A stretch of 64,000 bases of DNA from an uncultured delta proteobacterium (GTDB lineage: Bacteria; Desulfobacterota; Binatia; UBA9968): contig CAVUZH010000013.1 in NCBI GenBank assembly GCA_963745835.1, positions 320,001 through 384,000 on the forward strand, in the 5' to 3' direction. The position numbers and the translations under genes are program-made. Every line of letters begins with the position of its first letter. Position 1 is the first letter of the stretch. Below the pieces are notes generated by a model. The model ran no database searches. It was not told the DNA's origin and saw only the letters and a list, made by a program, of their open reading frames with translations. Positions 33,549 to 57,864 of the stretch are shown here, one piece after another.

Positions 33549-35124
33549 ATGGACGAACCCGCCTCGCCCTCTTCCGAAACACGGGCGCCTCGCTTGAATC
33601 AGTTGCGGACGGTCCTCAACGCCTGCAAACGAATGACCTCCGTAGGGGATGTCATTTCTCTTTTGGAGCTGATCACCAATGAGGCCGCCGCGCTTCTTCA
33701 AGCCGACCGGGCAAGCATTTTCCTTCTCGATCGCGAGAAATGCGAGCTCTGGTCGGTCATCACCCATGAAAAAGAAAAAAGAATTCTGCTGTTCGATGCG
33801 CGGCTGGGGATCGCCGGCGCAGCGGCGATGACCGGCCAGACGATCAATGTCGCCGATGCTTACGAGCATCCGTTATTCTTCAAGGAAGTCGATCAAAAGA
33901 TCGGCTATCACACCAAGACACTGCTTGCCGTGCCGATCAGAAATTCCCTAGGTGAAATCATCGGTGTCGGCGAAGCCATCAACAAAAAGAGCGGCATGTT
34001 TACGAACGAGGATGCCGAGATCCTTCAGTCACTCGCCTCGCACATCTGCGATGCCATCGAGACTACACAGATCGATAGGGCAATACCGAATCCACAAGGC
34101 GCTGAGGCAGAGAAGGAAATCGGCGGGGAATTTTCGACCCGAAACATCATCGGCATGAGCCATCGCATTCAGTCGGTCGTGCGCCTCATCGATCAAATTC
34201 GCGACAGCTCGGTCGACGTGCTCATTCAGGGCGAGAGTGGAACCGGCAAAGAGTTGGTGGCCAAGGCCTTACACTACAACAGCCCGCGAGCAAAACATCC
34301 GTTTGTCGCTGTCAATTGTGCGGCTCTGCCTGAGAGCATCGTCGAAGCGGAATTGTTCGGCATCGAAAGGGGTGTTGCTACCGGCGTGGATCGACGCATG
34401 GGTAAATTTGAAGAGGCTCAAGGCGGCACATTATTCCTCGACGAAATCGGCGATCTCAGCCTGCCAGCGCAAGCCAAGATTCTGCGCGTCTTCCAGGAAC
34501 GTTCGGTGACCCGAGTTGGCGGGCGCACGACGCTGCCGCTGGATATGCGCATCATCGCCGCGACTAATAAAGACTTGGAAGCTGAAATCAAGGCCGGACA
34601 TTTTCGCGTCGATCTCTACTACCGCTTGAAAGTGATCCACATCGAAACCCCGGCTTTACGGGAAGTACCTGAAGACATTCAGCTTCTGGCAAACCATTTT
34701 CTAGCGAAGTACAGCAAATTGATGAAGACCGAGCCGAAGCAGTTTACTCCGGCGGCTTTGGAGTGTCTTACGAGCTATCAATGGCCGGGGAACGAGCGAG
34801 AGCTGGAAAACGAAATTAAACGCCTGGTCGCTTCGGTGCGAGGAAAAACTATTGCACGCGGAACATATCGATCCGTCGATTCGCAGTTCGGAAAAGACGC
34901 TTGCAAGCTCAACGATCCCAAGCGCATTGAAAACGCCGCAGACGGAAAACGCTCCCGAGACATCCAGGTCTCTTAAGTCGTTGCCCGACGCCGTCGAAGC
35001 GCTCGAGCGCCGCATGATCGCCGAAGCGCTGCGCGAATCGGGCGGCAACAAACAGAAAGCGGCCCAAGCCCTAGGCCTGAGCCGGCAAGGATTGATTAAG
35101 AAGTTGAAGAGGCTGGGGATGTAA
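33549..35124 (+). CDS. GAF + sigma54-interacting AAA+ + Fis HTH enhancer-binding protein (frameshift near 34855)
   Basis: GAF domain; GESGTGKE, ELFGIERGVATGV (variant GAFTGA loop), LFLDEIG, WPGNERELEN; HTH (EALRESGGNKQKAAQALGLSRQGL) in the next frame, ORF 34852..35124. Confidence 0.88.
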
Positions 35125-36870: not shown

Positions 36871-37234
36871 TAGAGTCTCCCTTCTTTTCAATTTCTTTCG
36901 ACCCGATTCATAACTGTGCGCTGATCTTCGGCAGGACTGCGCTCTTTTGGAATTCAGAGTGACATTCTAAGCTACTGACAACCTCAGGCCCTACGGTCGC
37001 ACCAACATGAGCGCGATCGCTTTTCAAGGGCCGGCCACCCCAATCGCTCCCACTGGCGAATTGGACAGCCAGCTAGCCACCACCGCCCACGTCTAGGCAA
37101 TGCTCGTGAACAGTCTTTGATTAACGGTTCTCTGGAGAGTGCGACCAACGGCTAGCCGCTAGCTGAAGCGAAGCGACCCAAGAAACAAAACTCCCGCGGC
37201 CCATCGCGCACGCGCCGCAAACCCATCCGCCACG

Positions 37235-37366
37235 GTGGAGGCCCTTAAGCGCCACGTGACCGAAGAAGCGCTACGCGCCTGCCACGGCAAGAAACAAAAA
37301 GCGGCCCAGAGTCTTAAGCCTGAGCCGTCAGAAGTTGATCAAGAAGTTAAAGAGGTTGGGAATTGA
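37235..37366 (+). pseudogene. Remnant of a Fis-type HTH from a sigma54 activator, paralogous to 34993-35124
   Basis: gaagcgctacgcgcctgccacggcaagaaacaaaaagcggcccagagtcttaagcctgagccgtcagaagttgatcaagaagttaaagaggttggga aligns with the 3' end of the activator; one indel; no upstream AAA domain. Confidence 0.75.
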
Positions 37367-37422: not shown

Positions 37423-37716
37423 CTAATCGTTACGACGACGCTTGGTAGATGTAGTAGACTTTCGTTTTGAAGATGAACCGCTCGTCGCCTTGAATTTCCG
37501 AAGAACGTCTTTTTCAACCTGAACCGCGATCGCCGCAGTCACTGTATTTCGAACAGGTGCGATTTCGGACCCCTTAAAAATGACCTTGTTGATGGCCTTG
37601 CTCAGCGCATTGCGTAATTGCCTGCTTCTTTTCGGGTTTTTACTAGCAGCCCTGATAACTCTTCTTAACGCTGCACTGTCGTCGCGATCTGTAGTCGATT
37701 GAAGAGCCGTTCCCAT
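37423..37716 (-). CDS. Small basic hypothetical protein (97 aa), last gene of the NRPS cluster
   Basis: Strong AAGGAGG RBS before the ATG; K/R-rich; no family recognised. Confidence 0.6.
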   Translation of the reverse strand: MGTALQSTTDRDDSAALRRVIRAASKNPKRSRQLRNALSKAINKVIFKGSEIAPVRNTVTAAIAVQVEKDVLRKFKATSGSSSKRKSTTSTKRRRND

Positions 37717-37783
37717 ATTTCCTCCTTGCGTGCTAATACAATACTTATGTTTGACGTGAACCTAGGAAATTCTCGGAATTTAG

Positions 37784-39501
37784 TCAAGCCAATTGTGCAT
37801 GTGGGAGTTTCTGTTTACTGCCAACGCGTTTTTTAACTGCCTGTGTTGTTATAGTATCTTTTAACGACGGTCGGATTACCGTGTCAGTTGCCGCAGCCGT
37901 CTTCACAGTCATCGTTGTGTGGTCGTTAGCGTCTAGAAATCCAGATGGTAATTCCTTAATACGTGCCGCGAATGCTTTTTTCAGAGCGCGTACAATTGGA
38001 CGCCTTTGTAGCGAATCGACACTCTTGCCGCGCAGGAAATCATGTATTAATTTGTCTCTCGTGGATAGAGCCCGCTCTTCATACGCGAAGCTTGCTTTCC
38101 CAATCTTTTTCTTTTTTAATTGGACTTTCAGGATACCTTCCATAGACGTGGGCAGATATGGCAAAGCCATCGAATGCCCAATGCCAGGAAATTCGACGAG
38201 AGCGCGTTCGCCGGTTAGAGCTTCCTCGAAATAGTACTCTGCCTCACCTTCCTCAGTCACCGGATCAGCACCGCCCTTAAGTATTAGAGTTGGTTTACCA
38301 TGCTTGTAGGTGTTTGGATCCCAGGGTTTCGGTCTTTGTTCGTTTTGTGCCCCGACCAGGAAGGCGGCTGGAACCGTGCCTTTCACATGGCTCAGCCCGC
38401 GCACACCCGCAACACCGAAGAACCTGTCGTTCAGTCCATCGTAATAGGAAAAGATGTGATAAGCTCGGGCCGTATTTTGCGTGCTTTTGCCTCCCAGGAG
38501 TCGTTCACCATCCGCCAACTTACTTTTCACTACACCGTCTGTAAGGAGCTCCTCAACATCAACTCCTACTCTTCGCAGAATGGCTTTGGCAATAACAAGC
38601 CCACATTGGACCTGCGTGTCGTCAACTTTAGGCGTCTTGATGGGTCTCGCGTAAGGCACGTTTAGGGGAAGCCAACCGACGCTCTGCAAACGACGTACAG
38701 CGCCAAAAAAAGTTGGGCCACAATTCAAACCATCCTTCCGAAGCACTTGTTTCAACTTGTCGTAATTGTCACCTACCGACTGAACACTCCAATACTTGTC
38801 CTCCACTGCCTTCACAATTTTACGCACTTTCCCTAGTATATACTCCCTTGCATCACCCTTCACACGTTCGCGAACAGCTTGTCGATCGAAAAACTTAAAC
38901 TCCGGAAGTCTATATAGCTTTCGCAAAATGTCAAAAACCAACGCACCTTGAGTTTGTTCGTTGAGATTCGGTTCGCCTGTCGACGCGCGGAGAGCTCTCA
39001 TAGGCGCCATGGGAGCGGATAAAACAATTTTTCTCACATTGTCGGGGTACTGCCTCGCATAATCCTGAGCAACAACGCAGCCATAACTGTGTCCTATGAC
39101 TGCATCCCATCTTCTCAGGCCCAGATCCTGGCGGATCTTCTCCATGTCTTTAACTACGTACCGTGTTCGTAAGAATTGGTAGCGTCCACACCGTCAGGAA
39201 CTTGACTGAAGCCGGTACCGCGAAGGTGGAAATAGACGACCCTATAGCCAAACATGTCGACAAAATTTGTGGTGTCGGGTAGGATCATTTGGCCCGGACC
39301 TCCTGCGGCAAAGAGTATTGTCGGTTTCACTTTATTGTCGAATGTTTGGTCTTTGATAAAGTAATACAGCGAGAACTCCGGCGCCTTCTGCGAATATGGG
39401 TCCAAGTACTGTTGCACTAGGCGTTGTTCATAAAAACTACCATCGTCAAAGCGAAAGAGCATTCTGGCGGATCGTTCTTCAGCCGTCCAAATATTCGTCA
39501 T
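37784..39501 (-). CDS. Alpha/beta hydrolase, proline iminopeptidase/tripeptidyl-peptidase-like (frameshift near 39180)
   Basis: GGPG oxyanion loop and RGTGFS in ORF 39154..39522; GHSYG nucleophile, GADP and GIGHS in ORF 37784..39145; AAAGGAG RBS. Confidence 0.8.
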
Positions 39502-39564
39502 GGCTATTCTCCTTTTTTTCAACTATAGCGCGAGTATTACTGTACTGCCGATCTTGCAACCACC

Positions 39565-42500
39565 TCAAACATGCTTATTCGGTTTGAGAACAATGGAGGG
39601 AGCCAAGCTGCCGACCGCCACGGAAGACGAGATCGAAGATATTGAGATCATGACCTGCCTCAGACAGTCGACAACGTGAGCGGCTACTCCAAGATGAAAC
39701 ACATCGGTGCTATATGTTACGGATCCCGTCAAATTACTTGAGAACTCCTTGACCCGAAACGTGACATCGTACAGCGTAGGTGTGGATGCAACATGTTGTA
39801 TGGGCTCTTGCATACTCAGAGGCGCAATACTAATTGCATTCGGCGTGGGCGCTTGAGCCGTTGAACGCTCGTACATCACGATCACACGCGGGCGCCAGTT
39901 CCGGTCGGATACTATTTCTGCAGGCAATGTGCGAGCCAAAACCTCGAATGGGACGGCTTGATTGTGTTGCGCCGCAAGTATCGTCTCTCGAACTCGCTTA
40001 ATCGCTTCGTCAATAGACAGATCTCGCCGGATTCGCGTTCTCAAGAGCACTGTGTTGGCAAAGTTCCCGATTGTTGCGTGGCAGCTTAAAAAGCGCCGAT
40101 TTGAAACAATCGTGGCAACGCGTATGTCTTCCTTACCTGTAAGATAATGAATTAGAATCTTAAGAGCTGCAATGAACAGGATGAAAACCGTGCAGTTTTG
40201 ATTGTTAGCTCTTGATTTAAATAGTTCGAAGCGCCTCCCGTTCAGCTCGAACTGTTGCTGCGAATTGTAAACTTTACGATGAGTTATCCTTTTATGCCGT
40301 CCGGACGGGATTGCGCTCGGATGAGGATTGGCAAGTTGTTCTCTCCAGTATGAGAGTTGGTTGTCGAGCAATCCACTATTCAATATGTCTCTCTCCCAAA
40401 CGGCATAGTCTCCGTATTGTAAACTTGGATTCGAAAGAGGCGATGGCCGACCGACGATGAAGGCTTCATATAAGACAGTTAACTCCTGCCTGAATAACTG
40501 CATAGACCAAGCATCGCTGATGATGTGATGCACAGTGACAACCAGCAAACTCGCTGGAACACTCAGCCGAAGGAGGCATGTTCGTAGCAACGGACCAGTC
40601 GCGAGATCAAACGGACGCTCTCTCTCCTCTAGAATCAACTTCGCGGCACGTTGTGATAAGCTTTTTTTTGAGCTTTGGTGCAAATCGATATGGGCACAAT
40701 GAAAGTCGGTTTCATCCTTGATGATCTGAACAGGGCGCCCATCAACAACAGCAAAAACCGTTCGCAGTGCCTCATGACGCACAACGATTTCCTTCAGAGC
40801 TTTTTCGAGCATCTCAGAGTCGACTGCGCCGCTCAGGTGGTAAACGTATGGCATGTTGAACAAATCCGTGCCCGGAAACATTTGATCGATCTGCCAAATG
40901 AATTCCTGGTTAACTGATACGGGTGCAGGACCGCTACGCGGCGCTCGCACAATGGGCGGCAATTCGGGGACCCCGGTTTCGTTCAGCAGCATTTCAATCT
41001 TTCTGCTCAGTTCTGCAACTGTCGGCGAATCGAATAGCGCGCTGAATGGGACCTCTCGGTCAAAACATTCTTTCAATTTGGAAATGATCTGGATGGACAG
41101 CAGAGAGTGCCCCCCCAGATCAAAGAAGTTGTCGTGAATTCCAACACCTTCGTGCTGCAGCACGTCGCGCCAGATTTGCAGCATACACTGTTCTATTTCA
41201 TTTCTCGGCTCCACATCGGCATGGATCGGTTTAGGCACTTCGATGTTTGATAGGCGCAACGCGTTGCGGTCAACCTTGCCATTAAACGTAAATGGCATAT
41301 TAACGACAGGAACAAATTCCGATGGAATCATGTAAGTTGGGAGCTTTTTCTGAAGAAGGTTTCGCAATTCGGTTCCTGATGGCGCATCCGCTTCCGCCGT
41401 GTAGTAGGCAACTAACACGCCATCACAGTTTACCGTCGACCGCTGTTGAAGAATAACGGCGCACTCTTTGATACCCGGATTGGCGCTGAGGACCGCTTCA
41501 ATTTCGCCGAGCTCAAGGCGGTACCCGCGAACCTTCACCTGGTGGTCGATTCTGCCGAGGAACTCGATCTCACCGGTGCGCGTGTAACGGGCTCGGTCTC
41601 CTGTACGATACAGGCGCGCTTTTGGGCCGTCGACGAAAGATTCTTTAGGAAAATGCTCGGTTGTTAGTTCCGTTTTATTCCAGTAGCCGAGGGCGACACC
41701 AGCGCCTCCGATGTAAAGCTCGCCCGGAACTCCCACGGGTACGAGTTGCAAGAAATCGTCCAAGATATAAATCTGAGTGTTGGCGATAGGTCGGCCGATC
41801 GTAGTGGGACCGTCGGGAGTTCGGAGTGTAAACGTCGAGTACGTGGTTGTCTCAGATGGGCCGTACAGATCGTAAACCTTATTCACGGTTCCTAATTCAT
41901 GAATTCGCTTCACCAGTTCACGATGAAGCGGCTCGCCTGCCAGGTTGACGGTTCTGACGGAGCGCGGCAACGCGGCGACGGATAACAGCGCGGTCATCGC
42001 CGACGGGACGGTGTTAACCAACGTAATGCCGCTCGTATTTGCCAGATCTACGAGGCGCAGGATGTTGTCGATCAACACGATCTTCCCGCCCCAGCAGAGC
42101 GGCACGAACATTTCAAAGACAGAGAGGTCAAAGCAAATCGACGTCGAAGCCAAGACCCCTTCCAGGTCCTCATTGCCATAGACTGTTCTACCCCAGTATA
42201 GGAGATTCACCGTGTTTCTATGCTCGATGTTCACGCCTTTCGGCCGTCCCGTCGAGCCGGACGTGTAGATGACATAGGCCAAACTTCCTGAGCTGGCGTG
42301 AGGATGCGGGTTCGCCGGGCTCTCAAGCTCAATTACTGGCCAATCACGATCAATCCACACGTACTGAAGCTGATCGGTGAGCGCTGACAGCTGGCCGCCC
42401 TCAAAATATTTCTGCTGCGTTACGATCACGCTCGCCTGCGCATCCTCTAACATGAACCTCAACCGCTCTTTGGGATAGGTAGGATCCAGCGGAACGTAGG

Positions 42501-44322
42501 CGTTCCCCGCCTTGAGGACACCGAGGAGCGCGACAAGCATTTCCAAAGACCGGTCTACACAGACCCCCACCGACGTTTCGGGCCCTAGACCCAAACGAAT
42601 CAGGTAGTGGGCGAGTTGATTGGCCCGCTGATTGAGATCTCGGTAGGTGAGCTGCTCTCCCCTGAATTCAACCGCTATTACCGCCGGCGTACGTTCAACC
42701 TGTTCCTCGAATAACGTATGTATGCACTTGTCTATTGGATACTCTGCGGCTGTATCGTTCCATTCGATAAGCAATTGATGGCGCTCCGCTTCTGTAAGGA
42801 GCGGCAACGTAGAAATACCTTGATCTCTGTCTGTGACTACTGCCTTCAGGAGAGTTTGAAGGTGCCCCGTCATCCGTTGAATTGTGGAGCTATCGAAAAG
42901 ATCCGTGCTGTACTCGACATGTCCGATAAACTTGCCATCGCGCTCTCTGAGATAAAGCGATAAATCAAACAGCGATCGGCCGGTTTCGAATTCAATCGGC
43001 TCAATCTGCATGCCTTCGAGTGCTGATATGCCTCTGATTGCATTCTGCAGCGCGAACATGACTTGAAAGAGCGGATTGCGGCTCTGGTCACGTTCCGGCT
43101 GTAATTCTTGGACGAGCTTCTCGAAAGGAAGGTCTTGATGCTCTTGCGCATCAACACAAACCGCACGAACACGGGACAGCAATTCTCTAAAGGTCGGATT
43201 ACCTGATAGATCAGTCCGCAATACCAGCGTGTTCACAAGAAAGCCAATAAGAGGCTCCAGTTCAGGCCGGACGCGATTCGCGATCGGCGAACCAACAACG
43301 ATGTCCTCCTCTCCGGTATACCGGTAGAGCAAAAGTTGAAAGGCGGCGAGCAAGGTCATAAATGGCGTGACGCCGCATTCATTGCTCAATTCATTGATGG
43401 CCGCGGTTAGCGATTCCGGGAGGGTTATTGACAGTCTCGCGCCACGAAAGCTCTGTCTTAGCGGTCGTGAGCGGTCGGTGGAAAGATTAAGGATCGGCAG
43501 ATCGGCTAGCTGCTTTTTCCAATAGGAGATCTGCGAGTTAAGCACGGTTCCTTGCAACCATTCGCGTTGCCAGATGGCAAAATCCGCGTACTGGATCGGC
43601 AGTTCTTCGAGCTCAGACGATTTGTCCGCAGTGTACGTTTTATACAGAGACCAGAGTTCCCGTGACAGAATCCCCATCGACCACGCGTCGGATACGATAT
43701 GATGCGTGGCAAGAACCAGGATGTGCTCGTCATTGGCAACCCGAAGTACTTCGGCTCGAAGAAACATTCCTGCAGCAAAATCATAAGGGTTCTCGGCGGT
43801 TTCCTGAATTCGCCGTCGTATCTCTGCTTCACGATCAGCTTCAGGCGTTTGATGGAGGTCAACCACCGCGAGCTTAAAAGTAGCGGGAGGTTGGACAACT
43901 TGGAGAGGTCGCCCGTCTGCCAACTTGATCGTGGAACGCAGGACCTCGTGCCGCCGCAGGATCTCATTGAGGCTCCACTCCAACGCGGCGACATTGAGGC
44001 CTCCAGCGAGGCGCCAAGCACGGCACAGGTTGTAAATCGTGCCGCACGGGTCCAGTTGCTCCACGAACCAAAGCCGCTCCTGAGAGAATGATAACGGCGC
44101 AGGGCCGCCGTCAGTTCGCCTTGTGATAGGTGGAGGTATAAACCGGGCTGATGGTTGAAAACTGCGCAGGAACTCGAATAATTCCTGTTTGCGGGCCGCA
44201 ATTTGCGACCGGAGTTGTTTGGTCAGTTTGTTTTTCGGGGCGCTAACGCGTAGACGTTCACCTTTCGCGCTAAGCCTAACATCTTGAGTCTGAAGATAGG
44301 CGACGAACTCCGCAGTATTTAT
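39565..44322 (-). CDS. NRPS-2: beta-hairpin (TubC-N-like) docking domain-C-A(Ala predicted)-T-C
   Basis: Frame open from ATA 44322; PLSFSQERLW, HHIVSDAWS, YTSGSTGRPKG, YGPSE, LGGHSLL, terminal HHIISDAWS; no TE. Confidence 0.9.
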   Translation of the reverse strand: MNTAEFVAYLQTQDVRLSAKGERLRVSAPKNKLTKQLRSQIAARKQELFEFLRSFQPSARFIPPPITRRTDGGPAPLSFSQERLWFVEQLDPCGTIYNLCRAWRLAGGLNVAALEWSLNEILRRHEVLRSTIKLADGRPLQVVQPPATFKLAVVDLHQTPEADREAEIRRRIQETAENPYDFAAGMFLRAEVLRVANDEHILVLATHHIVSDAWSMGILSRELWSLYKTYTADKSSELEELPIQYADFAIWQREWLQGTVLNSQISYWKKQLADLPILNLSTDRSRPLRQSFRGARLSITLPESLTAAINELSNECGVTPFMTLLAAFQLLLYRYTGEEDIVVGSPIANRVRPELEPLIGFLVNTLVLRTDLSGNPTFRELLSRVRAVCVDAQEHQDLPFEKLVQELQPERDQSRNPLFQVMFALQNAIRGISALEGMQIEPIEFETGRSLFDLSLYLRERDGKFIGHVEYSTDLFDSSTIQRMTGHLQTLLKAVVTDRDQGISTLPLLTEAERHQLLIEWNDTAAEYPIDKCIHTLFEEQVERTPAVIAVEFRGEQLTYRDLNQRANQLAHYLIRLGLGPETSVGVCVDRSLEMLVALLGVLKAGNAYVPLDPTYPKERLRFMLEDAQASVIVTQQKYFEGGQLSALTDQLQYVWIDRDWPVIELESPANPHPHASSGSLAYVIYTSGSTGRPKGVNIEHRNTVNLLYWGRTVYGNEDLEGVLASTSICFDLSVFEMFVPLCWGGKIVLIDNILRLVDLANTSGITLVNTVPSAMTALLSVAALPRSVRTVNLAGEPLHRELVKRIHELGTVNKVYDLYGPSETTTYSTFTLRTPDGPTTIGRPIANTQIYILDDFLQLVPVGVPGELYIGGAGVALGYWNKTELTTEHFPKESFVDGPKARLYRTGDRARYTRTGEIEFLGRIDHQVKVRGYRLELGEIEAVLSANPGIKECAVILQQRSTVNCDGVLVAYYTAEADAPSGTELRNLLQKKLPTYMIPSEFVPVVNMPFTFNGKVDRNALRLSNIEVPKPIHADVEPRNEIEQCMLQIWRDVLQHEGVGIHDNFFDLGGHSLLSIQIISKLKECFDREVPFSALFDSPTVAELSRKIEMLLNETGVPELPPIVRAPRSGPAPVSVNQEFIWQIDQMFPGTDLFNMPYVYHLSGAVDSEMLEKALKEIVVRHEALRTVFAVVDGRPVQIIKDETDFHCAHIDLHQSSKKSLSQRAAKLILEERERPFDLATGPLLRTCLLRLSVPASLLVVTVHHIISDAWSMQLFRQELTVLYEAFIVGRPSPLSNPSLQYGDYAVWERDILNSGLLDNQLSYWREQLANPHPSAIPSGRHKRITHRKVYNSQQQFELNGRRFELFKSRANNQNCTVFILFIAALKILIHYLTGKEDIRVATIVSNRRFLSCHATIGNFANTVLLRTRIRRDLSIDEAIKRVRETILAAQHNQAVPFEVLARTLPAEIVSDRNWRPRVIVMYERSTAQAPTPNAISIAPLSMQEPIQHVASTPTLYDVTFRVKEFSSNLTGSVTYSTDVFHLGVAAHVVDCLRQVMISISSISSSVAVGSLAPSIVLKPNKHV

Positions 44323-47300
44323 ATCTCGATCTCCTCTCGGTCCGTATCCTCCGTGCCAGATGTCGTGTCTGATTGTTCTATTCGAACGTCGATCTCTTTT
44401 GCAAGACCGTCAATGGTGGGAGACTCAAAAAAAGTGTGCAATCCAAGCTCCACACCAAAAACGTCTCTGATACGCGATATTGCCTGCGCCGCCAACAACG
44501 AATGCCCTCCAAGCCGAAAGAAGTTCTCTTCTATACCGACCTGCTCCCGACCCAGGACCTGACATAAGATAACGGCGAGCTTTGCTTCGACTGCGGTTCT
44601 GGTAGCAGTTGTTGCGCTCGCCGGCAATTGTTGAAGTCGCCTAACAGGCGGCAGCGCTTGATAATCAATCTTTCCGTTAGGAGTCAGCGGCAGCTGTTCC
44701 AATATGACCATATGTGCCGGAAGCATGTAATCGGGAAGTCTGGTACTCAGATACCCGTGCAACAGGTCCGCCGTGCTGGAAATTGGGTCATCAGCAGCGA
44801 CATAGGCAACCAAACGCTTATCGGATTTTTGATTTTCGATTTTGGATTTTGAATTCTCGGATATGCACTCGTTGAATTCCCTTACAACCACGGCTCCGTT
44901 TTTAACTACTGGGTGCTTTTTGAGAACGGATTCAATCTCCTCTAGCTCGACGCGAAAGCCGCGGATGTTAACTCGGCGATCGGTTCGACCCGCCCACTCA
45001 ACGTTGCCATCGGGCAGATATCGGGCCAGCTCACCGGTCCGGTAGAGCCGGTCATTCGAATTACTCGTGAATGGATTCGCTAGAAATTTTTCGCTGGTGA
45101 GGTTTTCGTCTCCTACATAGCCGGCAGCTAAATGCGGGCTGCGAACGTGAAGCTCGCCGAGCTCGCCAACGCCGGCTAACTGCCAACTCTTGTTGAGCAG
45201 CAATAGCTGAACGTCTTTGATACCTTTGCCCAAAGGAACTGGCCGATTGGCATCGGTGTTGGTCAGGGTGAAATCCCTGGGAATTTCGTAGTAGCCCACC
45301 GCGCGTTGGGTCTCCGTCGCGCCGTAGAAACAGCCAATCGTTGCGTTGGGCACCAGTGCTCGGATGCGCGCCACTTCCCCGCGGGTTAAAACATCGCCTC
45401 CAAAGAAGACCCGACGTATCGCAACTAGCGGCTGGTCAGCGGCGGCCAACAAAAGTTGGCCAAGAGCAGGGGTGAGATGCAGGACTGAAATTCCGTTCAC
45501 CCTCAACCATGCGGTCAACTGCGCGGGTTCTCTGACAATGTTGGACGGCGGGACGTAGAGCGTGGCTCCAAGATAAAGCGCCGTGAAGATGTCACGATGG
45601 AGATGATTGTAGGCGAGCCCGGAGAGCAGGCAAAAGCGATCCGTTTCACACAGTTCGAACGCTTCCTTTTGCCACGACAAGAAATGCGTGATCGGCCCGT
45701 GCCTACCGCGCACGCCTTTCGGCTCTCCCGTCGAACCGGATGTAAAGGCGATATACGCGGGATCATCGGCACCGACAATGACCTCTGGCGCGACATTGGG
45801 CTGCTGACTGACAAGGTCGAGAAGCGCCCGTTTGCCTCTCGGTAATTTCAGACGGAACGAAAGATTGTGAGTGTCCAGATACGTCCCGAGCTCTTCTGGT
45901 AAATGCCCTGCCGCCTCCATTTGGATCCAGCCCCATGAATCCGAGATTCGTAAATAGGCAGTCAATCGGGCGGATGGGTATGCCGGATCGAGAATGACGA
46001 AAGCCGCGCCGGCTTTAATTATCCCGAGCAAGACTACGACGAGCTCAGAACTCCTTTGCGCATAAATGGCAACGACATCCCTCGGTTTAATCCCTTGCGC
46101 GACCATGTAGTTCGAAAGTTGGTTGCTGCAGATTTCTATCTCACGGTAAGTCCAAGTTTCTTCCCAATCGATTGCCGCCAGCCGATCCGGCGCGCGTTCA
46201 GCCCATTGCGCAACATACGCATAAATAGGTCCGTGCCAGGTATCATCAAGGGGCTCAGTCGGATCGGGAACCTGCGGCGGCATTGAGGGCAGCAATAGCG
46301 TATATTCGGCGATGCTCACTTGAGGCCTTTCTGCAAGTTGCGAGAGAAGATATCTGAGTTGCTCGAGCATTATGCAAATCCGAGATTCAGAGAACAGATC
46401 TGCGTTGTACACGATCGCGAGTTCTATCGCAGCGTCTTTTTCTGGCGCATAAAGAGTGATGTCAAATTTGGCCTCTGGATCGATAAACGATTCCTTTTTT
46501 ACTTCGCAGCCAGCAAGTTGCAGCACCCGTTCCGTCACGTCGGCCATGTTGAACATGATCTGGAACAAGGGATTACGGCTCAAATCACGGTTTGGATTAA
46601 TCGCCTCGACGATTCGTTCAAAGGGCGCATCCTGATGCGTGTACGCGCCTAAGCAGACTTCGTGGACACGCTTCAATAGTTCCAAAAAGCTCGGGTCGCC
46701 CCAGAGATCGGTGCGCAAAGGCAGCGCGTTGATGAAGAACCCGATGAGCCCCTCGGTTTCAGCACGGCTGCGCCCCGCGATGGTTGATCCAATGACCACA
46801 TCATCTTGTCCGGAGTAACGCGAGAGCAGAAGTTGGAATGCGGCGAGCAGTGTCATGAAAACAGTGATACCTTCCCGCCGGCTTAGCTGTTTGAGTGAGT
46901 CAGTCAATTCCTTCGAAAGAGACAGACATTTGCGAACTCCACGAGAGGTTTGCATCGCCGGTCGCGGGTAATCTGCCGGAATGCAAAGTGGCGTCAGGTC
47001 AGCAAGTTGCCGTTCCCAGTACTCCAGTTCTGTCCCTAATACGGCGCCATGGAGCACGTCCCTTTGCCATATTGCATAGTCAGCGTACTGGACTAGCAGT
47101 GGCGGTAACGGATTCGCTTGACCGCTGATGAAAGCCTGGTACAAAGTTCCAAGTTCCTTATAGAGCACGGCCATAGACGAGCCGTCGAGGACTGTATGAT
47201 CAAAGTTCAAAAGCAAGTAGTGTTTGTCTTGATCGACTCTTATTATCTTTGCCCTGACGAGTGGCCCGTTTCGAAGATCGAAAGGCTTACGTGCCTCTTG

Positions 47301-49283: not shown

Positions 49284-49405
49284 CCCTAAACTGATCAGGT
49301 GCCATGCGAGCTGGTTGGCGCGAGCATTCAGTTCTCGGTAAGTCAGCTGTTGCTCTTGGAAGGTGACCGCAATTGCATCAGCAGAATTCTCGGTTTGCTC
49401 TTCGA

Positions 49406-50800
49406 TTAGCTCGTGGATGCATTTGCTTTTCGGATACTCCCGGCCGTGTCATTCCACTCAATGAGGAGTTGTTTCCTCTCCGCTGCAGTAAGAATAGGAT
49501 AGTCCGAGATTCGTCGATCTGGATTGTCGCTTACTTCCTTGAGCAGGGTTTGATAGTGGCCTACCATCCGTTCGATCGTATCGGGCTTGAACAAATCAGT
49601 GCTGTATTCAATCGAGCCAACTAGATGTTGATTTGATTCTTGCAACGATAAGGTCAGGTCAAATTTGGCCGTTCCGTTTTCTAGCTCTAAAGCTTCAGTT
49701 CGGACGCCATCAAGGCATAGCTCTTCAGCACCTGGTTCCTGCATTGCAAACATCACGTGAAATAAGGGGTTCCGGCCCAGATCCCGCGTTTGTACTGTTG
49801 CCTCCACGAGTTTCTCAAACGGGAGATCTCCATGCGCAAATGCCTCATGGCAGATGTTGCGAACCCGCAGGACTAAATCTCTAAACGAAGGATTTCCAGT
49901 CAGGTCCAGCCGTAGGGCCAGCGTCTTTACGAAAAATCCTATTAACTGCTGCAATTCTGGCTGGTATCGATTGGCAACCGGAGAGCCCACCACGATATCT
50001 TCTTGTTCGCTATAGCGTCGCAACAGTGTCGCAAATGTTGCGAGCAAAATAACAAAAAGAGAAACATTTTCTTTTCGGCTAAATTCTTTCAGGGCTGTGG
50101 TTAGACGACGATCGATGGCCAGTGACCACCTGGAACCTCGGAAGGATTGAACTTTCGATCGCGCTCGATCTGTCGGCAGGTTTAGCAGCAAAGGCGGTGC
50201 AGCAAATCGAGGTTGCCAATAATCGAGCAATGATCTAAGTCGGTCCCCCTGCAGCTCATTCCTCTGCCACCAAGCGTAATCACCGTACTGAATCGTCAAT
50301 TTGGCTAGAGTAGGTTCTTGACCCATGTGAAATCGGCCGTACAGCGCCTCTAACTCTCGGTACAAGAGGCTGACAGACTGTCCATCACAAACAATCTGAT
50401 GCAGCGAAAGAAAAATGAGCCACTCTTCGTCGTCCATTCGTAGCAAAACGACTCTGATTAGGGGCCCATCGAGTAAGTCGAACGGTTTGTGTGCTGCGCA
50501 GTAGCGATGCGTGAGCCTTCGGTTTTAAGATCCTGCACAGGAAGTTCCGGAGATCGAGCACGGAAACATCCAAATGGACGCTTGGTCAATTACCTGTACA
50601 GGTTTTTCGCTGGCGCTGGAAAGTGTCGTTCGCAGGACACGTGATGGCGAATGATTTCGTTGAGACTTTGAGTGAGCGCATCGACGTCACGGTACCTTCG
50701 CAAGCAATGGAATTTTGGAAATATTGTAGACGGGACCGCCTGGCTGTAGTTGAAAAGAAACCACAGTTGTTGGTGACGAAAGGTAAGATGCTGGGTCATC
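49406..50800 (-). pseudogene. NRPS-1 first condensation domain, frameshifted fragments
   Basis: QQLWFL in ORF 50590..50799; HQIVCDG, IQYGDYA, IGFFVKTL, AKFDL, LLIEWNDT in ORF 49406..50446. Confidence 0.8.
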
Positions 50801-50975
50801 CCCTAGCGATGTTGTCTCTATTTTTCTGGGCTGCTGCTCCGTGAAGAACCCGTGTTCCTGTTGCAGCAAGATGAATAGAGTTCGCGTCCGGCGAGACGAT
50901 GTTCTTTCGAACATTGTCCGACGAGTCATCAGGCACGACCTCCAAGCATCCCTCTCCGCTCCTCCAGTGGTTTCT

Positions 50976-52907
50976 CTATCTCGTTGGAGTCAGCCACCCT
51001 CGCATCCCGGAGCAAAATCCGAGGCTGCCAGAGTCCGCCGCTTCAACCGGTTGGACTTCATGCATGCTGAGAAACTCCGCAAGCTGACTAACGGTCGGCA
51101 GTTCATAGGTGTTCACCGGCCGTCTCGGCGCGAACTTTTCTATGATCTCAGATGCGAGCTGCGTTGCTAGCAGCGAGTCGCTACCGAGCTCGAAAAAGCT
51201 ATCGTTAATGCCGACCCCATCGATTCCAAGGACCTCGGCGCAGAGGTTGCAAAGCGCCTTTTCCAGATCCGTCCCGGGCTGAACGTAAGGCGTTGCTAAC
51301 TCCGGACGAGAAATTCCCGGTGAAGGAAGGGCGCGGCGATCTATCTTCCCACCGGGTGTGAGCGGTAGTGAATCGACGGCAACATACCAAGAAGGCAGCA
51401 TGTACGGCGCCAATTTGGCTTGTAGCAGACCGCGCAAATCTCCGGTACTAAAGATCCCGCCATCCTGAGGCACAACATAAGCAACCAACCGATTGGCGCC
51501 GCGGCTGTCTCGCCAAGGCACAATGACGCCTTCTTTCACCTGTGGGATCTCCAATAACGCCCTCTCGACCGCTGAAACTTCGACGCGGTGCCCCCGCACC
51601 TTAACCTGGAAGTCTCTTCGCCCGACATGGAAGAGACAGCCGTCGGACGTCCGGTATCCCAAATCTCCGGTGAAATACGTGCGTCTGGTTTCGTCTCTCG
51701 GGTCGAACACAAACTTCGACCGCGTCAGTTCCGGCTGATGCCAATAGCCGACCGAAAGATAGCGGCTTCGAACCGCAATCTCGCCAACCTGATTGGCACC
51801 AACGTCATTTCCATCCTCATCGACTATCAAAATTTCATTGCCTTCGAGCGGATATCCCACGGGAACGTGTTCGCCGATGATCTCAGTATGCTTACGTATG
51901 AAAAGAGAACGCGATAGTTTACTCTTGCTTAGACCCAGACGAGTAACAAAAAGACATGAGTCAGAAAAATGGTTTTTGAGGAGGACAATGTTGTTTTTGG
52001 ATATCGGCTCTCCACCCACGTGTATCAAACGCAACTGGGGAAAAGAATTTTAATCCCCTTGACGTTCTTGACCGCCAGACGAAAGACCGACGTCACACAC
52101 GTAAAAGCAGTGATGTTTTCTTCCGCGAGCCAACGCCCCAAATCGGTTGATCCATCTTTCAGGTCAAGAGGTAATAAAGTAGCGCCGTTGAGTAAGCCGA
52201 GCAACGCATCGCGCGTGGCTCCGACATTGTTGGAACGAACCAAACTGATTCGGTCATCGGGCGTAATGTGTAACGCATTCGTGTTCGTCATGATGTTATG
52301 AATCTCGTTTCGATGATTCGCCATGACACCCTTCGGCTCGCCGGTAGATCCCGAGGTGTAGTGAATATACGCAAGATCACTTGCAGCGATCGCCGGTACC
52401 AGGATTGGCCTCCGAGAGCCCTGTGTCCAAATTGTCGATATTGACAACCGTCGTGGACTGCGCAGCTAGCTGATTTGCCAAAGCCAGATTGGCCTGATCG
52501 CAAAGAGACCATTTTTGTTAGGCGCAAAATCTTGAAGTATCCGAGTCAGTCTTGCCGGGGGAATCGAGTATTCGATGAACGAAGGGGCGGCGCGACTTCA
52601 GCACCGCGAAGCTGGCTATTATGGATGACACTCCCGGTTGACAGAGCACCGCCACCGGATCGTTGCTCATCGGATGAATAGGCAAAATCGCGTGAGCTGC
52701 TCTATTCACCGCCCGATTCAGCACCTCATAAGTAAGCTGCCGATCGCGAGTTCTTAAAGCTAGCCTCTGACCGTGCTCGCGTGCTCGTTGTTCAAAGCAA
52801 TCTGCAATGGCTCCCTCGAGATAATCCTTTTTGAATTCTACAAACGGATTGGCTGGACCAATGCGCCCATCGGCAATTATCGGCAATTCCGTTTTTGTGT
52901 TACTCAT
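50976..52907 (-). pseudogene. NRPS-1 loading module A-T, frameshifted into at least three ORFs
   Basis: LTYEVLNR (52518..52964), YTSGSTGEPKG (52025..52447), YFTGDLG, GRRDFQVKVRG and FFELGSDSL (50976..52034); ATG 52907 overlaps the upstream stop (ATGA). Confidence 0.8.
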
Positions 52908-55900
52908 GACACCATCGATGAGTTTGCGATTTTTGCGAGGCTTGCTTGGGCCGGAACAGACCAATGTGTCATTTTCATCGTATCGTAAAGCTCAATTGCC
53001 GCGCACAACTCCTCGCGCGCGAGTCGGGGCTGACCTTGGCCTAGTTTAAGATTACTCAACCCGGCGTGACAATGCGCCTCCAGTGGACTCATGCCCAATT
53101 CGTCAGCGAACGCTAAGGCACGCCGATAGTAGAGTCGCTTCATCGTCGCAGGCCGGGTGCGAACGCGCGGCAATATCGCCAAGAACTTTTAACGCCCATG
53201 CTTCGTGTCCTCGCTCCTTATGGGTTTGCGCAAACTCGAGCGCACGTCGCGCAACATCACCTGCCTCTGTAATTCGTCCTGACAACAAATACCCTTCACT
53301 TAGCCACACCATGCTAAGCGAAAGAAATCCGACCCTCCCCACCGAAGCGGAATTACTTACCCCCTGTTCCAGATAGGGTAGAGCCTCGGCAATTCGTCCC
53401 CCGGTGGCGTAGGCGGCTCCCAAACGGGAGGCGACGAAGGGCACGTACACAGGAACTCCTGCCGATTGGCAAATTTTCAAACTGAGTTCGAGTAATCGGA
53501 CGGCCTTTTCGCATTCACCGCGCAAGAGGAAAAGAAATCCAGGCTCAATTCGCATATATCCGGCTGACAGGATGTTCGACTTCATTAGCAATGCGGATAC
53601 CCTCCTCTCCGTCACGCATGCCTTGATCAAACTCACCGGTCGCAGCAAGGCATTGAACTAAATGGCTCCGGCACACAACGGAGATCACAAGCGTTGTTCC
53701 GAATCGTTCATGCCTTAGCTCCGCTTTAATCCCTTGCAGACCTCGCTTGAGGACGTCAATCGCTTCTCTGTAACTTCCCATCTTGTTATAGGCAGCGCCC
53801 AAGTAATAATGCGCCACCGCACCAATAGACGGATCAACGCCCACGATCGGCAAAGCCAGAGCGCGCCGCCCGTATGATACTGCCCCATCAGGATCGCCAG
53901 CGATGCCCGCATAACTACACAAGAAATTAAGAACTCGCCCGATTCTGGGTTCGTCGCCGAGTGTTTGAGCGAGCGTTTCCGCTTCTTTTAGATATTGATG
54001 GAGCTTCCTAGAGTCGCCTAACAAGAATAGTGCGTTACGTAACTGTAAACGCAAATCGATAGCCCATTCCAGTTTTGACCGCGAATCATTCACATGATCC
54101 AAAGCCTCTAGGCCTCGCTCTAGGAACGATACGGCTTCTTTGCACGCAGAACATGCTAGAGCCTTTGCCGCAGCTTGACTCAAGTATGGGACTGCCTTAT
54201 CCCACAACTCCCCGCGAAAAGCATGACGCGCAAGCGTCTCAACATAGTCCTGCAGATTGGTATCTTGGATCGCTTCGAGCGCGCTCACAACCCGTGCGTG
54301 GAGAGCAACCCTTCGGTCGTGGAGCAACGCGCCATACGCAACTTCGTTGGTGAGAGCATGCTTGAACGTATACTCTAGTTTTGGAAAAAGATTCGTTTCA
54401 TAAATAAATTCAGCGGACCTGAGATGGGCTAGATATTCAAAAAGCTGGTCGTCTGGTAGCTCCGAGACCGCCTGGAGCAGATCAAAAGGAATGATTACTC
54501 CGATCACAGCGGCAGTCTGAAGAAGATGTTTCTCTTCGACGGGCAGACGATCGATACGATCCGCTACAACGTTTTGCACCGTGCTTGGGATAATGAAATC
54601 ATCAATTTTCAGTCCAGGCCGGTAAGCCCCTTTCTCTCCGGTCAAAACCCCGGTTTCCAGCAAAGACCTCACGCTTTCTTCAGCAAAGAAGGGATTTCCT
54701 TCAGTGCGCTTGATTAATAGTTGTTTGAGGGACAAAAGGTCAGGATTATCTCCGAGTAGCTTTGATAAGAATTCTTCGACGCTACTCGTCTGGAGCGGAT
54801 CAACGCGAAGTTGAGTGTAATAGCTTTTTTCCGACCATCCGTGATTATACTCGGGCCGATAATTAACGAGGAGCAAGAGGTGGGCCATGGGAAGACTATC
54901 AACCAGACCGTCAAGAAACGATTGGGTTTCATGATCGATCCAGTGGAGGTCTTCGAAAACCAGCAGCAGATTTTGTCTTTGGCTTTCCCGGAGACACATC
55001 CGTTTGAGTGCATCTAAAGTTTGACGGCGACGCTGCTGCGGATCCATGGAGTTAAAGCGTCGGATGGACTCCTCGATATCTTGGAGCGGTACTAGCCAGT
55101 CACGCTCCTGCCCGGGGTCGGTAGTACCTGCATCCGGATAGGCGCCGAGCAATGAGAGGACTGGCGGGATTGCATCTTTGAGTGTGCTGTCCAGTTCTAA
55201 TATACGCGTCACAACTTGGCTTCGGATGTTCTCGCTCGATTCCCCACCGTTAATTCCGAAATAGCGCCGCAACATCTCGGTCAGTGGGAAATACGGCGTT
55301 GCCTTACCGTAAGAAACTGATGTGCCTTCGAGCACCAGCCACCCTGTGGGCAGCTGGTGACGAGTAAACTCGTGCACCAAGCGCGACTTACCGATACCGG
55401 GTTCGCCAATCATCGCCAATACTTGACCGCTGCCAGCGCTCACACGCTGGACCAGTTTGTTGAAGATGTCGATTTCTGCGTTGCGTCCCACTAGTGGCGT
55501 CAACCCGCGAGTAGCGCCAGCTTGGACGCGCGTCCGTGCTGAAGTGGCACTGACGAGATCGTATGCTTCCACAGGCTGCGAAAGCCCTTTGGCTTGGACC
55601 CCGCCGAGTGATTTCACTTCGACAAAACCTTCGACCTGCCGCAAAGTAGAGGCCGTCATCAGTATTGAGCCGCGACCTGCAAGCCCCTGCATCCTGGCTG
55701 CCAAATTCGACGTGTGGCCTAAAGCCGAGTATTCGATATTGAGATCATTGTCGATGGACCGGACCACGACCTCCCCGGAATTCATTCCAACACCGATTTG
55801 TAATCCCGATTCTTCCGCTTGGCCGAGCCTCTGGCGGTAGCGTCGCATGTCTTCTTGCATAGCCAATGCCGCATAACACGCGCGCAACTGCATGATCCTC

Positions 55901-56362
55901 ATGAGCCAACGGTGCGCCAAACAGCGCCATGATGCCGTCGCCCAGATATGATTGACGGTTCCTTCATAACGATGCACCGCGTCCATCATGGCTTTTAGGA
56001 TTGGATCTAGTAGCTTCTGTGCCTCCTCGGGATCGAGCCCTTCCACGAGGCGTGTGGAATCTTTAATGTCGGCAAATAAGATCGTCACCTGCTTTCGCTC
56101 ACCTTCTAAAGTGTGGCGCTCAGCGAGGATTTTTTCGGCAAGGTGTTTGGGAATAGGTGGCTGGCGTGCTGAAGTGTTCTGCGATGAAGTCTGAGTTGCA
56201 ATCGCTGGTCGGCTAAGTCGACTGGCCGCATTTTTTACAAAACTTTGCCCCCCGGCGATTAGCCTCACCGCAGCTTGAACACGCGGTTTCCAGCGGCGTG
56301 CCGCACTCATCGCAAAACGCCGCGGTGTCAGGATTCTGATTCTTACAACGAGGGCAATTCAA
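52904..56362 (-). CDS. Double zinc-ribbon + class III adenylate/guanylate cyclase + P-loop NTPase + TPR protein (several frameshifts)
   Basis: TTG 56362: CPRC..FCDECG..CSSCG..FCKKCG; ERKQVTILFADI, MALFGAP..HEDHA, NLAARMQ; Walker A GEPGIGKS, Walker B LVFEDLHW; EGNPFF, FKHAL; helical TPR-like C-terminus. Confidence 0.87.
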
Positions 56363-56452
56363 CTTCAGCTTCTCCGTGCTTCAGCTAGACCGTTGTGTCA
56401 GATCGCGCGGTAGTTCGGTAGGCCTAAAGAAGAAGCTGTACGATCTTTTAAT

Positions 56453-57226
56453 CTATTCCCTATTCAATATTCCGACAACTGGTTCATTTCCATTCCCGCT
56501 GTTTGAGTCCCATTGGCTAACATGCATCCGGCACTGCGAGCCAGAGAAAACAATGGCGGCAGCGTAGCCTGCTACAGATTCTATATCCTCCATGTACCAG
56601 CGGGACGCTTCTTCTGAAGCCCCTCTGACGTGTAACAATCTTGCCGGCTGCCCCGGCACTAGCGAAACATCAAAATCCGATAAAGGACAACTCAGTCCAT
56701 CGCCAAGAGCCTTTATGAAGGCTTCCTTTCGGGTCCAACACTTAAAGAAGGCAATTCTCTGCATGTCTCGCGGCAAGCTGCGGAATGCTGCCACCTCAAC
56801 CTTAGAAAAAAAACGTTCGGCAACACTCTCGATCGGAAATTCATGATTTACCAACTCAATGTCTATGCCAACAGGACGATCTCGTGTGATCGCGTAAATT
56901 GCCGTTCCGGCCGAATGAGCCAAGTTGAATTGAATCGCCGGTCGACCTTCCTGTCTTCGTATGCCGGGTTTGCCGTGGCTGCCATAGGTGAAGATAATTT
57001 CATTAGCTGGCAGTCCAAGGTAAGGGCTCAAGATTACCCGCAACAGGCCTCGTCCAGCGACAAACCGTTCGCGGTCCTTATGAAAGCGAAAGCGGTTCGC
57101 TCTGTTGGTTTCAGCCTCGGCAAGAATGCTTTCAAAAAACCTGAGTTCCGATTCCCGCCGGTCCAAAGAAGCGATGCGGACATGTACCTCACCTTGGCCC
57201 AAGGGCGCCACTTCAATGCCTGTCAT
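56453..57226 (-). CDS. Sfp-type 4'-phosphopantetheinyl transferase
   Basis: HGKP, FNLAHS, VGIDIE, WTRKEAFIKALG.GL. Confidence 0.94.
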   Translation of the reverse strand: MTGIEVAPLGQGEVHVRIASLDRRESELRFFESILAEAETNRANRFRFHKDRERFVAGRGLLRVILSPYLGLPANEIIFTYGSHGKPGIRRQEGRPAIQFNLAHSAGTAIYAITRDRPVGIDIELVNHEFPIESVAERFFSKVEVAAFRSLPRDMQRIAFFKCWTRKEAFIKALGDGLSCPLSDFDVSLVPGQPARLLHVRGASEEASRWYMEDIESVAGYAAAIVFSGSQCRMHVSQWDSNSGNGNEPVVGILNRE

Positions 57227-57457
57227 GTTGTCCTGAGATTGCCGCCGATCGTAGTATTCTCGCCAGGGGACTGGCCTCTCCTAACATAATCCCAGGCAAC
57301 CAATCAAACGAAATGTTTTGCTCTATCATGGTGTTAGAGCTGCGATAAAACGAGCGCAATCGCAGCAGCATCAACTCGAACCCTTCGGACATAACGACGG
57401 GCACAAATACCATTTGAACCGAGAAATGATCGTTGAAGAAAAGAAGACTGCGAATAA

Positions 57458-57486
57458 TTCAGGGGAGGGCTTTTCCCTCCCCTGAA
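57458..57486 (-). terminator. Stem-loop, probable terminator or mRNA-stabilising hairpin
   Basis: TTCAGGGGAGGG-CTTTT-CCCTCCCCTGAA: perfect 12-bp stem 15 bp after the stop of 57502..57819; short U tract. Confidence 0.65.
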
Positions 57487-57501
57487 CTGCGACTCATCGT
57501 T

Positions 57502-57798
57502 TCAATCACCGTCAGCGAACCCGCGCATAAGCAGCTGTCTCTGAAAGCGGATCTCATCTAATCCCAACGGGTCGTGATCGCACGAGCCGTAGAAATCAAT
57601 GCTGTTGCCGGCACTCTCGTTCAGCACCGGGTTACCGGAGAATAGTGACTCTTCGCTGATCGGGGGGAACTTCATGTGGCAGTAGCTGGTGGTCTCGGCA
57701 GGCACCGTGAGCATTACTTCCTGGCTGCCCACTGTCGTCACTCCCCAGAACAATGTCGAAGAGATAATCAAGTTGGTTAGAAGCGATATAGTTTTCAT
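57502..57798 (-). CDS. Small secreted protein with two Cys (YCHMKFP...DFYGSCDHDPLG)
   Basis: AGGAGGTG RBS before MKTIS (57798); signal peptide; preceded by a sigma54 motif and followed by a hairpin. Confidence 0.75.
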   Translation of the reverse strand: MKTISLLTNLIISSTLFWGVTTVGSQEVMLTVPAETTSYCHMKFPPISEESLFSGNPVLNESAGNSIDFYGSCDHDPLGLDEIRFQRQLLMRGFADGD

Positions 57799-57848
57799 CT
57801 TTCTCACCTCCTTTCTCATCTAAATTTCACTTGCTGCATCATCTTCAT

Positions 57849-57864
57849 TGCATCGCTTGTGCCA
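57849..57864 (-). promoter_or_regulatory. Putative sigma54 (-24/-12) promoter
   Basis: Minus strand TGGCACAAGCGATGCA, close to consensus TGGCAC-N5-TTGC with exact GG-N10-GC spacing. Confidence 0.7.

Follow-up and report, generated by a model that had tools for sequence, protein, structure and literature searches.

The DNA analysed here (the window) is a stretch of 64,000 nucleotides from an uncultured delta proteobacterium (assembly GCA_963745835.1, contig CAVUZH010000013.1, positions 320,001 to 384,000), and the system in question is a nonribosomal peptide synthetase (NRPS) operon that also encodes a protein of about 1150 aa when intact, composed of a class III nucleotidyl cyclase, a STAND NTPase and tetratricopeptide repeats (TPR). 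Comparison of homologous loci showed that the TPR part of this putative receptor co-varies with the first adenylation domain of the synthetase (A1), and that both are exchanged as one block. Co-variation of a receptor domain with the determinant of its signal is what characterises pherotype systems, with the caveat here that the two are adjacent. An operon with a swappable sensor suggests a private small-molecule signalling system, and a signalling cassette that senses its own small-molecule product is, tentatively, the best explanation of the data. The system is real, conserved and apparently undescribed, and is built of known parts.

The genome holding the window comprises 7.3 Mb in 25 contigs, and this cluster is its sole NRPS. 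Homologous loci were sought in 90 genomes of the family, one of uncultured soil bacteria, labelled G000 to G088 and so on (G000 is the window's own genome; L numbers denote loci), where cyclase, condensation (C) and hydrolase matches share contigs. A single gene order was found throughout: cyclase-STAND-TPR, A-T, C-A-T-C-A-T, dock-C-A-T-C and hydrolase, A and T being adenylation and thiolation domains. For a count free of cyclase bias, loci were picked by the third module (A3) alone. This search gave 40 places, 26 of them at 59% identity or more, and a STAND gene lies upstream of A1 in all 21 of these whose contig reaches that far (four of the STAND genes are cut by the contig end, and one has a UbiD gene between). 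The remaining five comprise three contigs that end within the NRPS and two loci that were not in the comparison. Ten of the 14 weaker places were examined, and showed other architectures and no cyclase match. A metagenome scan added 70 loci, eight of which could not be anchored and 28 of which extend 600 nt or more upstream of module 1; the STAND gene was present in 26 of 26 loci of this type (20 distinct), and the remaining two, whose first module is different, lack it.

Conversely, an NRPS was found at one of 80 cyclase-STAND-TPR loci from other genomes, itself a copy of the same cluster, many of the 80 showing little downstream DNA. The NRPS-linked cyclases form one clade (FastTree support 1.0, 112 of 119 rows) in a tree whose linked members were partly selected for their resemblance to the query. 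The cyclase belongs to the cluster as a constant component. An earlier reading made from the sequence alone had tied the NRPS to this gene and held that homologous clusters without it would speak against the tie; they carry it in 21 of 21 and 26 of 26 cases. Incidental insertion of an abundant paralogue is ruled out by the few paralogues in the genome, the count of one in 80, the single clade and the 26 metagenome loci.

The association between TPR and A1 is the strongest in the locus. Their distances correlate with r = 0.87 in 29 genome loci and r = 0.92 in 18 metagenome loci, the latter being the set left after removal of six duplicates and one short locus. In the full matrix the TPR-A1 value (0.86) was the highest of 66 domain pairs, while other adjacent pairs reach only 0.28-0.68. 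The TPR and NTPase domains correlate at 0.28 in the full matrix and at 0.14-0.46 across sets, a value that falls to about zero once A1 is controlled; TPR and A3 correlate at 0.06, and the backbone domains correlate mutually at 0.42-0.74. TPR distances do not follow modules 2-4, including A2 and A4. The cassette analyses use composite readings of frameshifted loci, and the badly broken G044b was excluded from the distance correlations and split counts.

Trees were compared as well. On the TPR tree (31 loci) the A1 types require five changes, which is the minimum; the NTPase tree (27 loci) requires eight and the A3 tree (23 loci) 10. Shuffled types require 11 or more on the TPR tree; no mismatch between TPR and A1 type occurs in the 31 loci. 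Among supported splits in 40 loci, TPR and A1 share 15 of 27 with six in conflict, and TPR and NTPase share eight with 15 in conflict. In approximately unbiased (AU) tests of 18 loci, each domain's grouping was rejected on the other's alignment (p = 3e-77 and 2e-4).

Sharp crossovers were located at the joint between NTPase and TPR and past A1. Between the G044b and G045b loci, identity is 84-98% as far as the NTPase end and 32-52% in the TPR, while G045b and G058 are 48-74% identical before the NTPase end, 80-97% across TPR and A1, and about 60% afterwards. Type-specific TPR columns, spread over about five repeats, fall 17 times on the first helix of a repeat, seven times on the second and three times in loops; the first TPR helix is the one that lines the groove. 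Three genomes carry two cluster copies with different TPR/A1 types (G044:C13; G045:C50 and C67; G048:C8 and C13). Two clade receptors have no NRPS immediately downstream, a second copy in G009 and one in G006, a genome in which neither A1- nor A3-type domains were found; such orphans fit a diffusible ligand. Complex prediction of TPR with A1 (G011 pair, 20-row alignments) returned a score of 0.00, uninformative either way.

In the receptor, the STAND Walker A and B motifs GxxGxGKS and EDLHW are invariant in 17 intact copies, and the predicted structure contains about 21 TPR helices, with PH0952 (6MFV) as top Foldseek match (E = 7e-12). The metal-binding Asp residues D112 and D156 and the transition-state Arg R237 are invariant in the 17 intact cyclases and align with those of 2W01 and 3R5G. 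The residue set of an active cyclase is nevertheless incomplete, with Gln at the base-selecting site and His in place of the transition-state Asn, each in at least 90% of rows; confidence of the structure model is low within the cyclase domain. These specificity-site residues could be compatible with pyrimidine cyclase activity. Full-length relatives of the cyclase in the window's genome are only a tandem pair on C19, which are cyclase-STAND-TPR paralogues without an NRPS that fall outside the linked clade (G000:C19:516189-522939, L077), and a distant one on C4. Near the STAND cyclase, a gene pair for a CHASE2-cyclase and a FecR-TPR(-TonB barrel) protein occurs in G009, G088 and G006 (L025, L027, L062), and in G006 a transporter that binds cyclic nucleotides (cNMP) also adjoins it, forming a wider cyclic-nucleotide island.

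Concerning NRPS chemistry, in the window A2 and A4 have Asp235 and carry Gly-type (DILQLGLIW) and Ala-type (DLFNNALTY) codes. The Ala and Ser codes and the beta-Ala reading of VDW-type codes are assumed assignments, which the text and one supplement of PMC12283262 did not contain. The product X-Gly-Y-Ala proposed by the sequence-only reading stands for this copy but does not hold family-wide, positions 2 and 4 being variable: 16 combinations of A1, A2 and A4 were counted in 33 loci, or 15 if one partial code is merged, corresponding to about 15 product types. A1 lacks Asp235 but keeps Lys517 in 50 of 50 loci, with pocket types R, Q, S and rarer ones. No characterised close relative of A1 was found in PDB sequence and fold searches or in the homologue search, and the PDB, NCBIfam and plasmid searches returned only distant A-domain matches for the cluster. 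A1-like A-T starters without Asp235 are present in other NRPS clusters of the family (G040, with seven strong matches on several contigs; G072:C5; G043:C4; G022:C67) and constitute an uncharacterised group of A domains. At G009:C26:185437-187143 (L025) a UbiD-family decarboxylase gene separates cyclase and A1, and may hint at the starter substrate of that type.

A3 is invariant across the family, and its best NCBIfam match is the Lys2-type model TIGR03443 (445 bits over the A domain). It shares Arg239 and His278 with Lys2-type domains, but lacks Asp235 (Asn in 39, Ser in 27 and Gln in one of 67 loci), has mostly xxTGE for YRTGD and is not followed by a reductase domain; Lys517 is kept in 59 of 59 loci. 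The α-aminoadipate code of such A domains is given as DPRHLALLAK in PMC12283262. We infer that the A3 substrate would be a dicarboxylate without an ordinary alpha-amine; speculatively, the unit is a hydroxy-diacid giving an ester bond. The second position of the C1 motif is also unusual, reading HQ in 48, HF in one and HH in one of 50 loci, and both exceptions share the rare A1 type 'IGA'. The second His of C2-C4 is kept in readable loci, and the terminal C domain keeps HH. Taken over all domains, the HHxxxDG in every C and Asp235 in every A of canonical linear NRPSs were not found. The hydrolase keeps its Ser-Asp-His triad in 17 of 17 rows; a signal peptide is apparent by eye in many relatives, and none in the window copy. 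It co-varies with C4 and A4 (C4-hydrolase r = 0.58).

A possible reader of the cyclic nucleotide is encoded beside the operon. The GAF-sigma54 activator at 33549-35124, which like the TPR-A1 cassette was absent from the sequence-only reading, has a GAF domain closest to those that bind cAMP or cGMP (best PDB matches 1YKD, 4MCW and PDE2A), and most of 16 GAF copies contain the NK-F-D-E motif expected of a cNMP-binding GAF. The activator is convergent with the operon within the examined stretch at 15 of 23 hydrolase-bearing loci; the other eight are one contig-end fragment, one with the activator about 8 kb on, three without an activator nearby and three on contigs that are too short. A relic of the activator's 3' end lies just past the operon terminator, which suggests that the activator formerly abutted the operon, as in G088. 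Sigma54 sites precede 13 of 15 copies of a small gene, against a background of 0.26 matches per 10 kb. Its family comprises probably secreted proteins of about 100 aa with two Cys, is multi-copy, and has no Pfam or NCBIfam match. A sigma54 motif upstream of the activator also points away toward differing genes in G050, G044a, G052a, G046, G045a, G049, G008, G009 and G006, and the genes behind these outward motifs are candidate direct targets.

In the mechanism proposed, the NRPS would make an acyl-capped short peptide consisting of a starter X that A1 selects and that is not an amino acid, a small residue (Gly in this copy), the invariant dicarboxylate-like unit joined through its distal carboxyl, and another small residue (Ala here), and the terminal C domain would release it onto a nucleophile; the serine hydrolase might then trim or destroy it. 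The TPR groove would bind the starter end of the product, as the co-exchange hints, and binding would open and oligomerise the STAND core, by analogy with MalT, dimerising the cyclase domains. The dimer would make a cyclic nucleotide that activates the neighbouring GAF-sigma54 activator and hence sigma54 genes, such as those for the small secreted proteins. Exchange of TPR and A1 as one block would create pherotype-like specificity groups. A bolder version, possible but doubtful, is a new class of bacterial kin recognition: an NLR-like (STAND) receptor-cyclase would read a self-made non-ribosomal acyl-peptide and drive the GAF-sigma54 regulon through a cyclic nucleotide, perhaps other than cAMP, with TPR-starter swaps setting specificity and orphans listening to other strains.

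Several observations weigh against product sensing. What the data fix is the partner with which the TPR co-varies, not its ligand, and the adjacency of TPR and A1 means that co-exchange alone is no proof of a functional link. The TPR does not track A2 or A4, so the whole peptide is not read; a co-variation with A4/C4, weak in 17 loci, was gone in the metagenome and pooled sets and was rejected. Among kin, Mantel p values make significance look greater than it is, and the groups for the AU tests were defined once the trees had been seen. The orphan receptors number only two, one of them in a 270-contig assembly. Judged from their substitutions, the cyclase may be weak or dead, as may C1, whose catalytic His is missing in 49 of 50 loci. 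The activator is not exclusive to the cluster, being present in 41 of 90 family genomes, about 17 of which lack the cluster, and the genome holds nine class III cyclase and seven cNMP-binding domains that might be the source or the reader of the signal instead. In 39 loci, neither the cyclase nor the PPTase (phosphopantetheinyl transferase) gene is preceded by a sigma54 site, so no direct autoinduction loop is visible, and sigma54 control of the operon itself was discarded. Among open reading frame (ORF) families of at least 100 aa in the same 39 loci, no conserved transporter family was found.

The ligand could instead be the free starter acid or its adenylate, the nucleotide reporting supply and the peptide being used elsewhere, as a surface product, chelator or antagonist. 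This is unlikely, though it is the alternative that fares best: the TPR follows A1 and neither A2 nor A4, the TPR-bearing STAND protein MalT answers a small sugar (PMC6468293), the UbiD-family decarboxylase in G009 hints at dedicated acid substrates, and the orphan receptors fit it too. A ten-repeat groove whose type-specific residues are so widely spread would, however, seem large for a small acid, and feed-forward control would call for a sigma54 site that the operon lacks.

Somewhat less probable still is that the TPR binds the A1-T1 protein itself, reporting or controlling its loading or guarding it, so that the co-variation would mark an interface. The tightest co-variation does join these adjacent, closely spaced genes, A1-T1 is often a separate small protein, and a C1 without its catalytic His hints that module 1 is perhaps no ordinary starter; but the clade receptor of G006 occurs where no A1-type domain was found, and G009 has a second receptor of a different type.

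Joint recombination of two fast-evolving neighbours without functional link, the cyclase sensing something else, is improbable. Adjacency would allow it, as would crossovers that fall within the conserved end of the NTPase and on the downstream side of A1, and a second adjacent block, C4 with the hydrolase, also co-varies. The absence of any mismatch in 31 loci and the lower values of other adjacent pairs speak against it, and it would not account for the retention of the cyclase at every assessable locus. Equally improbable is an anti-phage or conflict system, in which an Avs-like STAND protein would sense a foreign protein and the nucleotide would trigger a toxic NRPS product or the hydrolase: the architecture of STAND-TPR plus cyclase, the patchy distribution, the fast TPR evolution, the room for pyrimidine cyclase activity and Avs3 at Foldseek rank 25 would suit it, and a PADLOC scan of six proteins gave weak domain-level cyclase matches to PycC, one TAP-like match and no Avs model match, but the TPR type follows the host's own starter domain, annotated neighbourhoods are metabolic or signalling with a single GmrSD gene at one locus, plasmids carry no close A3 relative (all below 60%), and the nearby receiver is a transcription activator.

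Several known systems resemble parts of this one. PH0952 and MalT share the NTPase-helical-TPR architecture, and inducer-driven multimerisation is the activation model for STAND proteins of this type (PMC6468293); the receptor differs from them in its N-terminal class III cyclase with zinc ribbons, the absence of a DNA-binding effector, its NRPS operon and an identity of 12%. The cyclase-ATPase-TPR region (residues 99-1112) also aligns with TIGR03903, the TOMM kinase/cyclase (E = 1e-99), with a score of 335 against a cut-off of 706, the first 280 model positions unmatched and no kinase Pfam match. TIGR03903 is a precedent for such a sensor inside a natural-product cluster, a kinase lying beside Burkholderia TOMM clusters (PMC2887384), but its partner is a RiPP, a peptide made by the ribosome and altered after translation, and the partner here is an NRPS. 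Mycobacterial Rv0386-type proteins have the same three-domain core followed by a helix-turn-helix (HTH), and their Gln-Asn pair is linked to mixed adenylyl/guanylyl activity (bioRxiv 10.1101/2024.03.06.583649); the receptor has no C-terminal HTH, carries Gln/Ser and His instead of Gln/Asn, and sits in an NRPS context. The closest solved cyclase domains are Cya2 (2W01) and CyaB (3R5G), with which both metal Asp residues and the Arg align, but which have Glu or Lys where Gln is found here, Asn for His, and a membrane sensor. Cya2 has guanylyl activity.

In the agr, comQXP and RRNPP systems, receptor-signal pairs recombine as a block between conserved flanks, RRNPP receptors are TPR proteins, and orphan receptors occur. 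The present system resembles them in its TPR receptor, in the block exchange of binding domain and signal determinant and in its orphan receptors, and departs from them in that the determinant is an NRPS domain, the receptor is a STAND cyclase, and neither a conserved exporter or importer nor operon feedback was seen. No paper describing this cluster was found in the open-access literature searched. For cyclase-STAND-TPR proteins, a large orphan family of soil bacteria (at least 603 confirmed matches), the cluster gives a lead to a ligand, and it offers natural matched and mismatched receptor/synthetase pairs. If the proposal is true, a second messenger and a sigma54 activator are linked to an NRPS product, a form of control absent from the papers searched. 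For biochemistry, the cluster also provides A domains of two uncharacterised types, a C domain with Gln for His and an ATA start that is conserved.

Features of the locus, with positions in the window.
Feature	Position	Strand	Basis or remark
Core: double zinc ribbon - class III nucleotidyl cyclase - STAND NTPase - about 10 TPR repeats	52904..56358	minus	Pfam, alignment, model, Foldseek
Exchangeable cassette: TPR + A1(-T1), approximate borders	50976..54150	minus	distance, tree and crossover analyses
Core: starter A1-T1 gene, A1 without Asp235, pocket type 'R' (NNVG / HVGGE / RLG)	50976..52907	minus	
Core: C1 (HQxxxDG)-A2 (Gly code)-T-C2-A3 (Lys2-like, N-H-R-H-F-G-F-R-A, YRTGE)-T, start approximate	44319..50929	minus	
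Core: NRPS-2, TubC_N dock-C3-A4 (Ala code)-T-terminal C (HHxxxD intact), ATA start	39565..44322	minus	
Core: alpha/beta hydrolase related to prolyl aminopeptidases, Ser-Asp-His invariant	37784..39501	minus	
Associated: GAF (cyclic-nucleotide type) - sigma54 AAA+ - Fis HTH activator, convergent on operon	33549..35124	plus	
Relic copy of activator 3' end, just past operon end	37227..37363	plus	74% identical to 34985-35120
Terminator-like hairpin behind basic protein	37302..37327	minus	hairpin scan not above chance overall (30 found, 22.1 +/- 4.5 expected)
Accessory: small basic protein	37423..37716	minus	homologue only at G008 and L193, sequences identical to each other
Accessory: Sfp/HetI-type PPTase	56453..57226	minus	
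Separate unit (probable): small, probably secreted protein, multi-copy family, candidate sigma54 output	57502..57819	minus	
Sigma54 -24/-12 motif TGGCAC-N6-TGC	57850..57864	minus	
14-bp hairpin with U-rich tail after small gene, probable terminator	57456..57488	minus	z -5.8, 0/200 shuffles

The gene order, the minus strand for all genes and the Pfam domains described by the sequence-only reading were confirmed, as was an NRPS without a thioesterase (TE) domain, no TE match being present among the domain hits. Other boundaries had to be revised. The ATGA overlap between cyclase stop and A1 start is present at 52907-52904, and absent from 10 intact relatives inspected. The domains assigned to a single NRPS-1 gene are correct, but A1-T1 stops at 50976 and bears its own C-terminal tail before that stop, much like the separate A-T gene found in L188, the closest relative; in this copy NRPS-1 probably comprises two genes, and split and fused forms of A1-T1 both occur among relatives. 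Membership of the operon core was not upheld for four elements. A strong hairpin with a U-rich tail, ending about 230 nt before the PPTase gene, separates the sigma54 site and small secreted gene from the operon, and these probably form a separate unit. G000 and G088 are the only genomes with the PPTase gene immediately upstream of the cyclase, and the basic protein has one other distinct homologue sequence; neither belongs to the core. Sigma70 promoter scans of the locus gave no more than chance level.

The overlap claimed between NRPS-1 and NRPS-2 exists only if NRPS-2 starts at ATA (44322-44320), a conserved codon that overlaps the TAA of the upstream gene (44322-44319) behind GAGGAG. The start codon at this junction was ATA in 43, GTG in three and ATG in two of 48 distinct junctions, a count that excludes 13 further matches not fitting the search pattern. 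ATA is kept although TGA, which would yield ATG, is the commonest stop in the genome's long ORFs (1425 of 3436); selection would appear to favour a start that is weak and coupled.

Frameshifts interrupt the cyclase, A1, C1 and hydrolase genes of the window, and the activator frame also breaks before the HTH. The cyclase frame breaks near 56220, 55950-55890, 53545 and 53100-53190, the NRPS inside C1 and at about 49440, and the hydrolase near 39170. Short-read contigs of near-identical strains have 1-2-base indels at 49438, 51905, 52058, 53540/53545, 55888 and 56219, these being the sites among the rows listed, none of which matches the hydrolase break. The breaks are probably assembly errors, because near-identical strains have indels there and many relatives carry intact versions of the broken genes. 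At the breaks covered by short-read contigs, a pseudogene reading is unsupported. Contigs of RNA run X15, from related strains, span the small gene, the PPTase and cyclase genes and portions of the NRPS; neither expression nor co-transcription can be deduced from them, and they were not used as evidence.

With regard to distribution, A3 was found in none of 337 other genomes of the class and the hydrolase profile in none of 400 phylum genomes apart from G000, both being samples and no proof of absence; a hydrolase pattern scan of genome contigs found nothing. Small-protein clusters in the Atlas were commonest in Candidatus Binatota, and of the three A1 homologues listed with a named organism, two are from Candidatus Binatia. 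A passage in PMC8692599 mentions two Binatota NRPS clusters without detail. An esterase/formamidase-like alpha/beta hydrolase gene at 58086-59057 is divergent from the operon, and was found upstream of the cyclase region in six loci.

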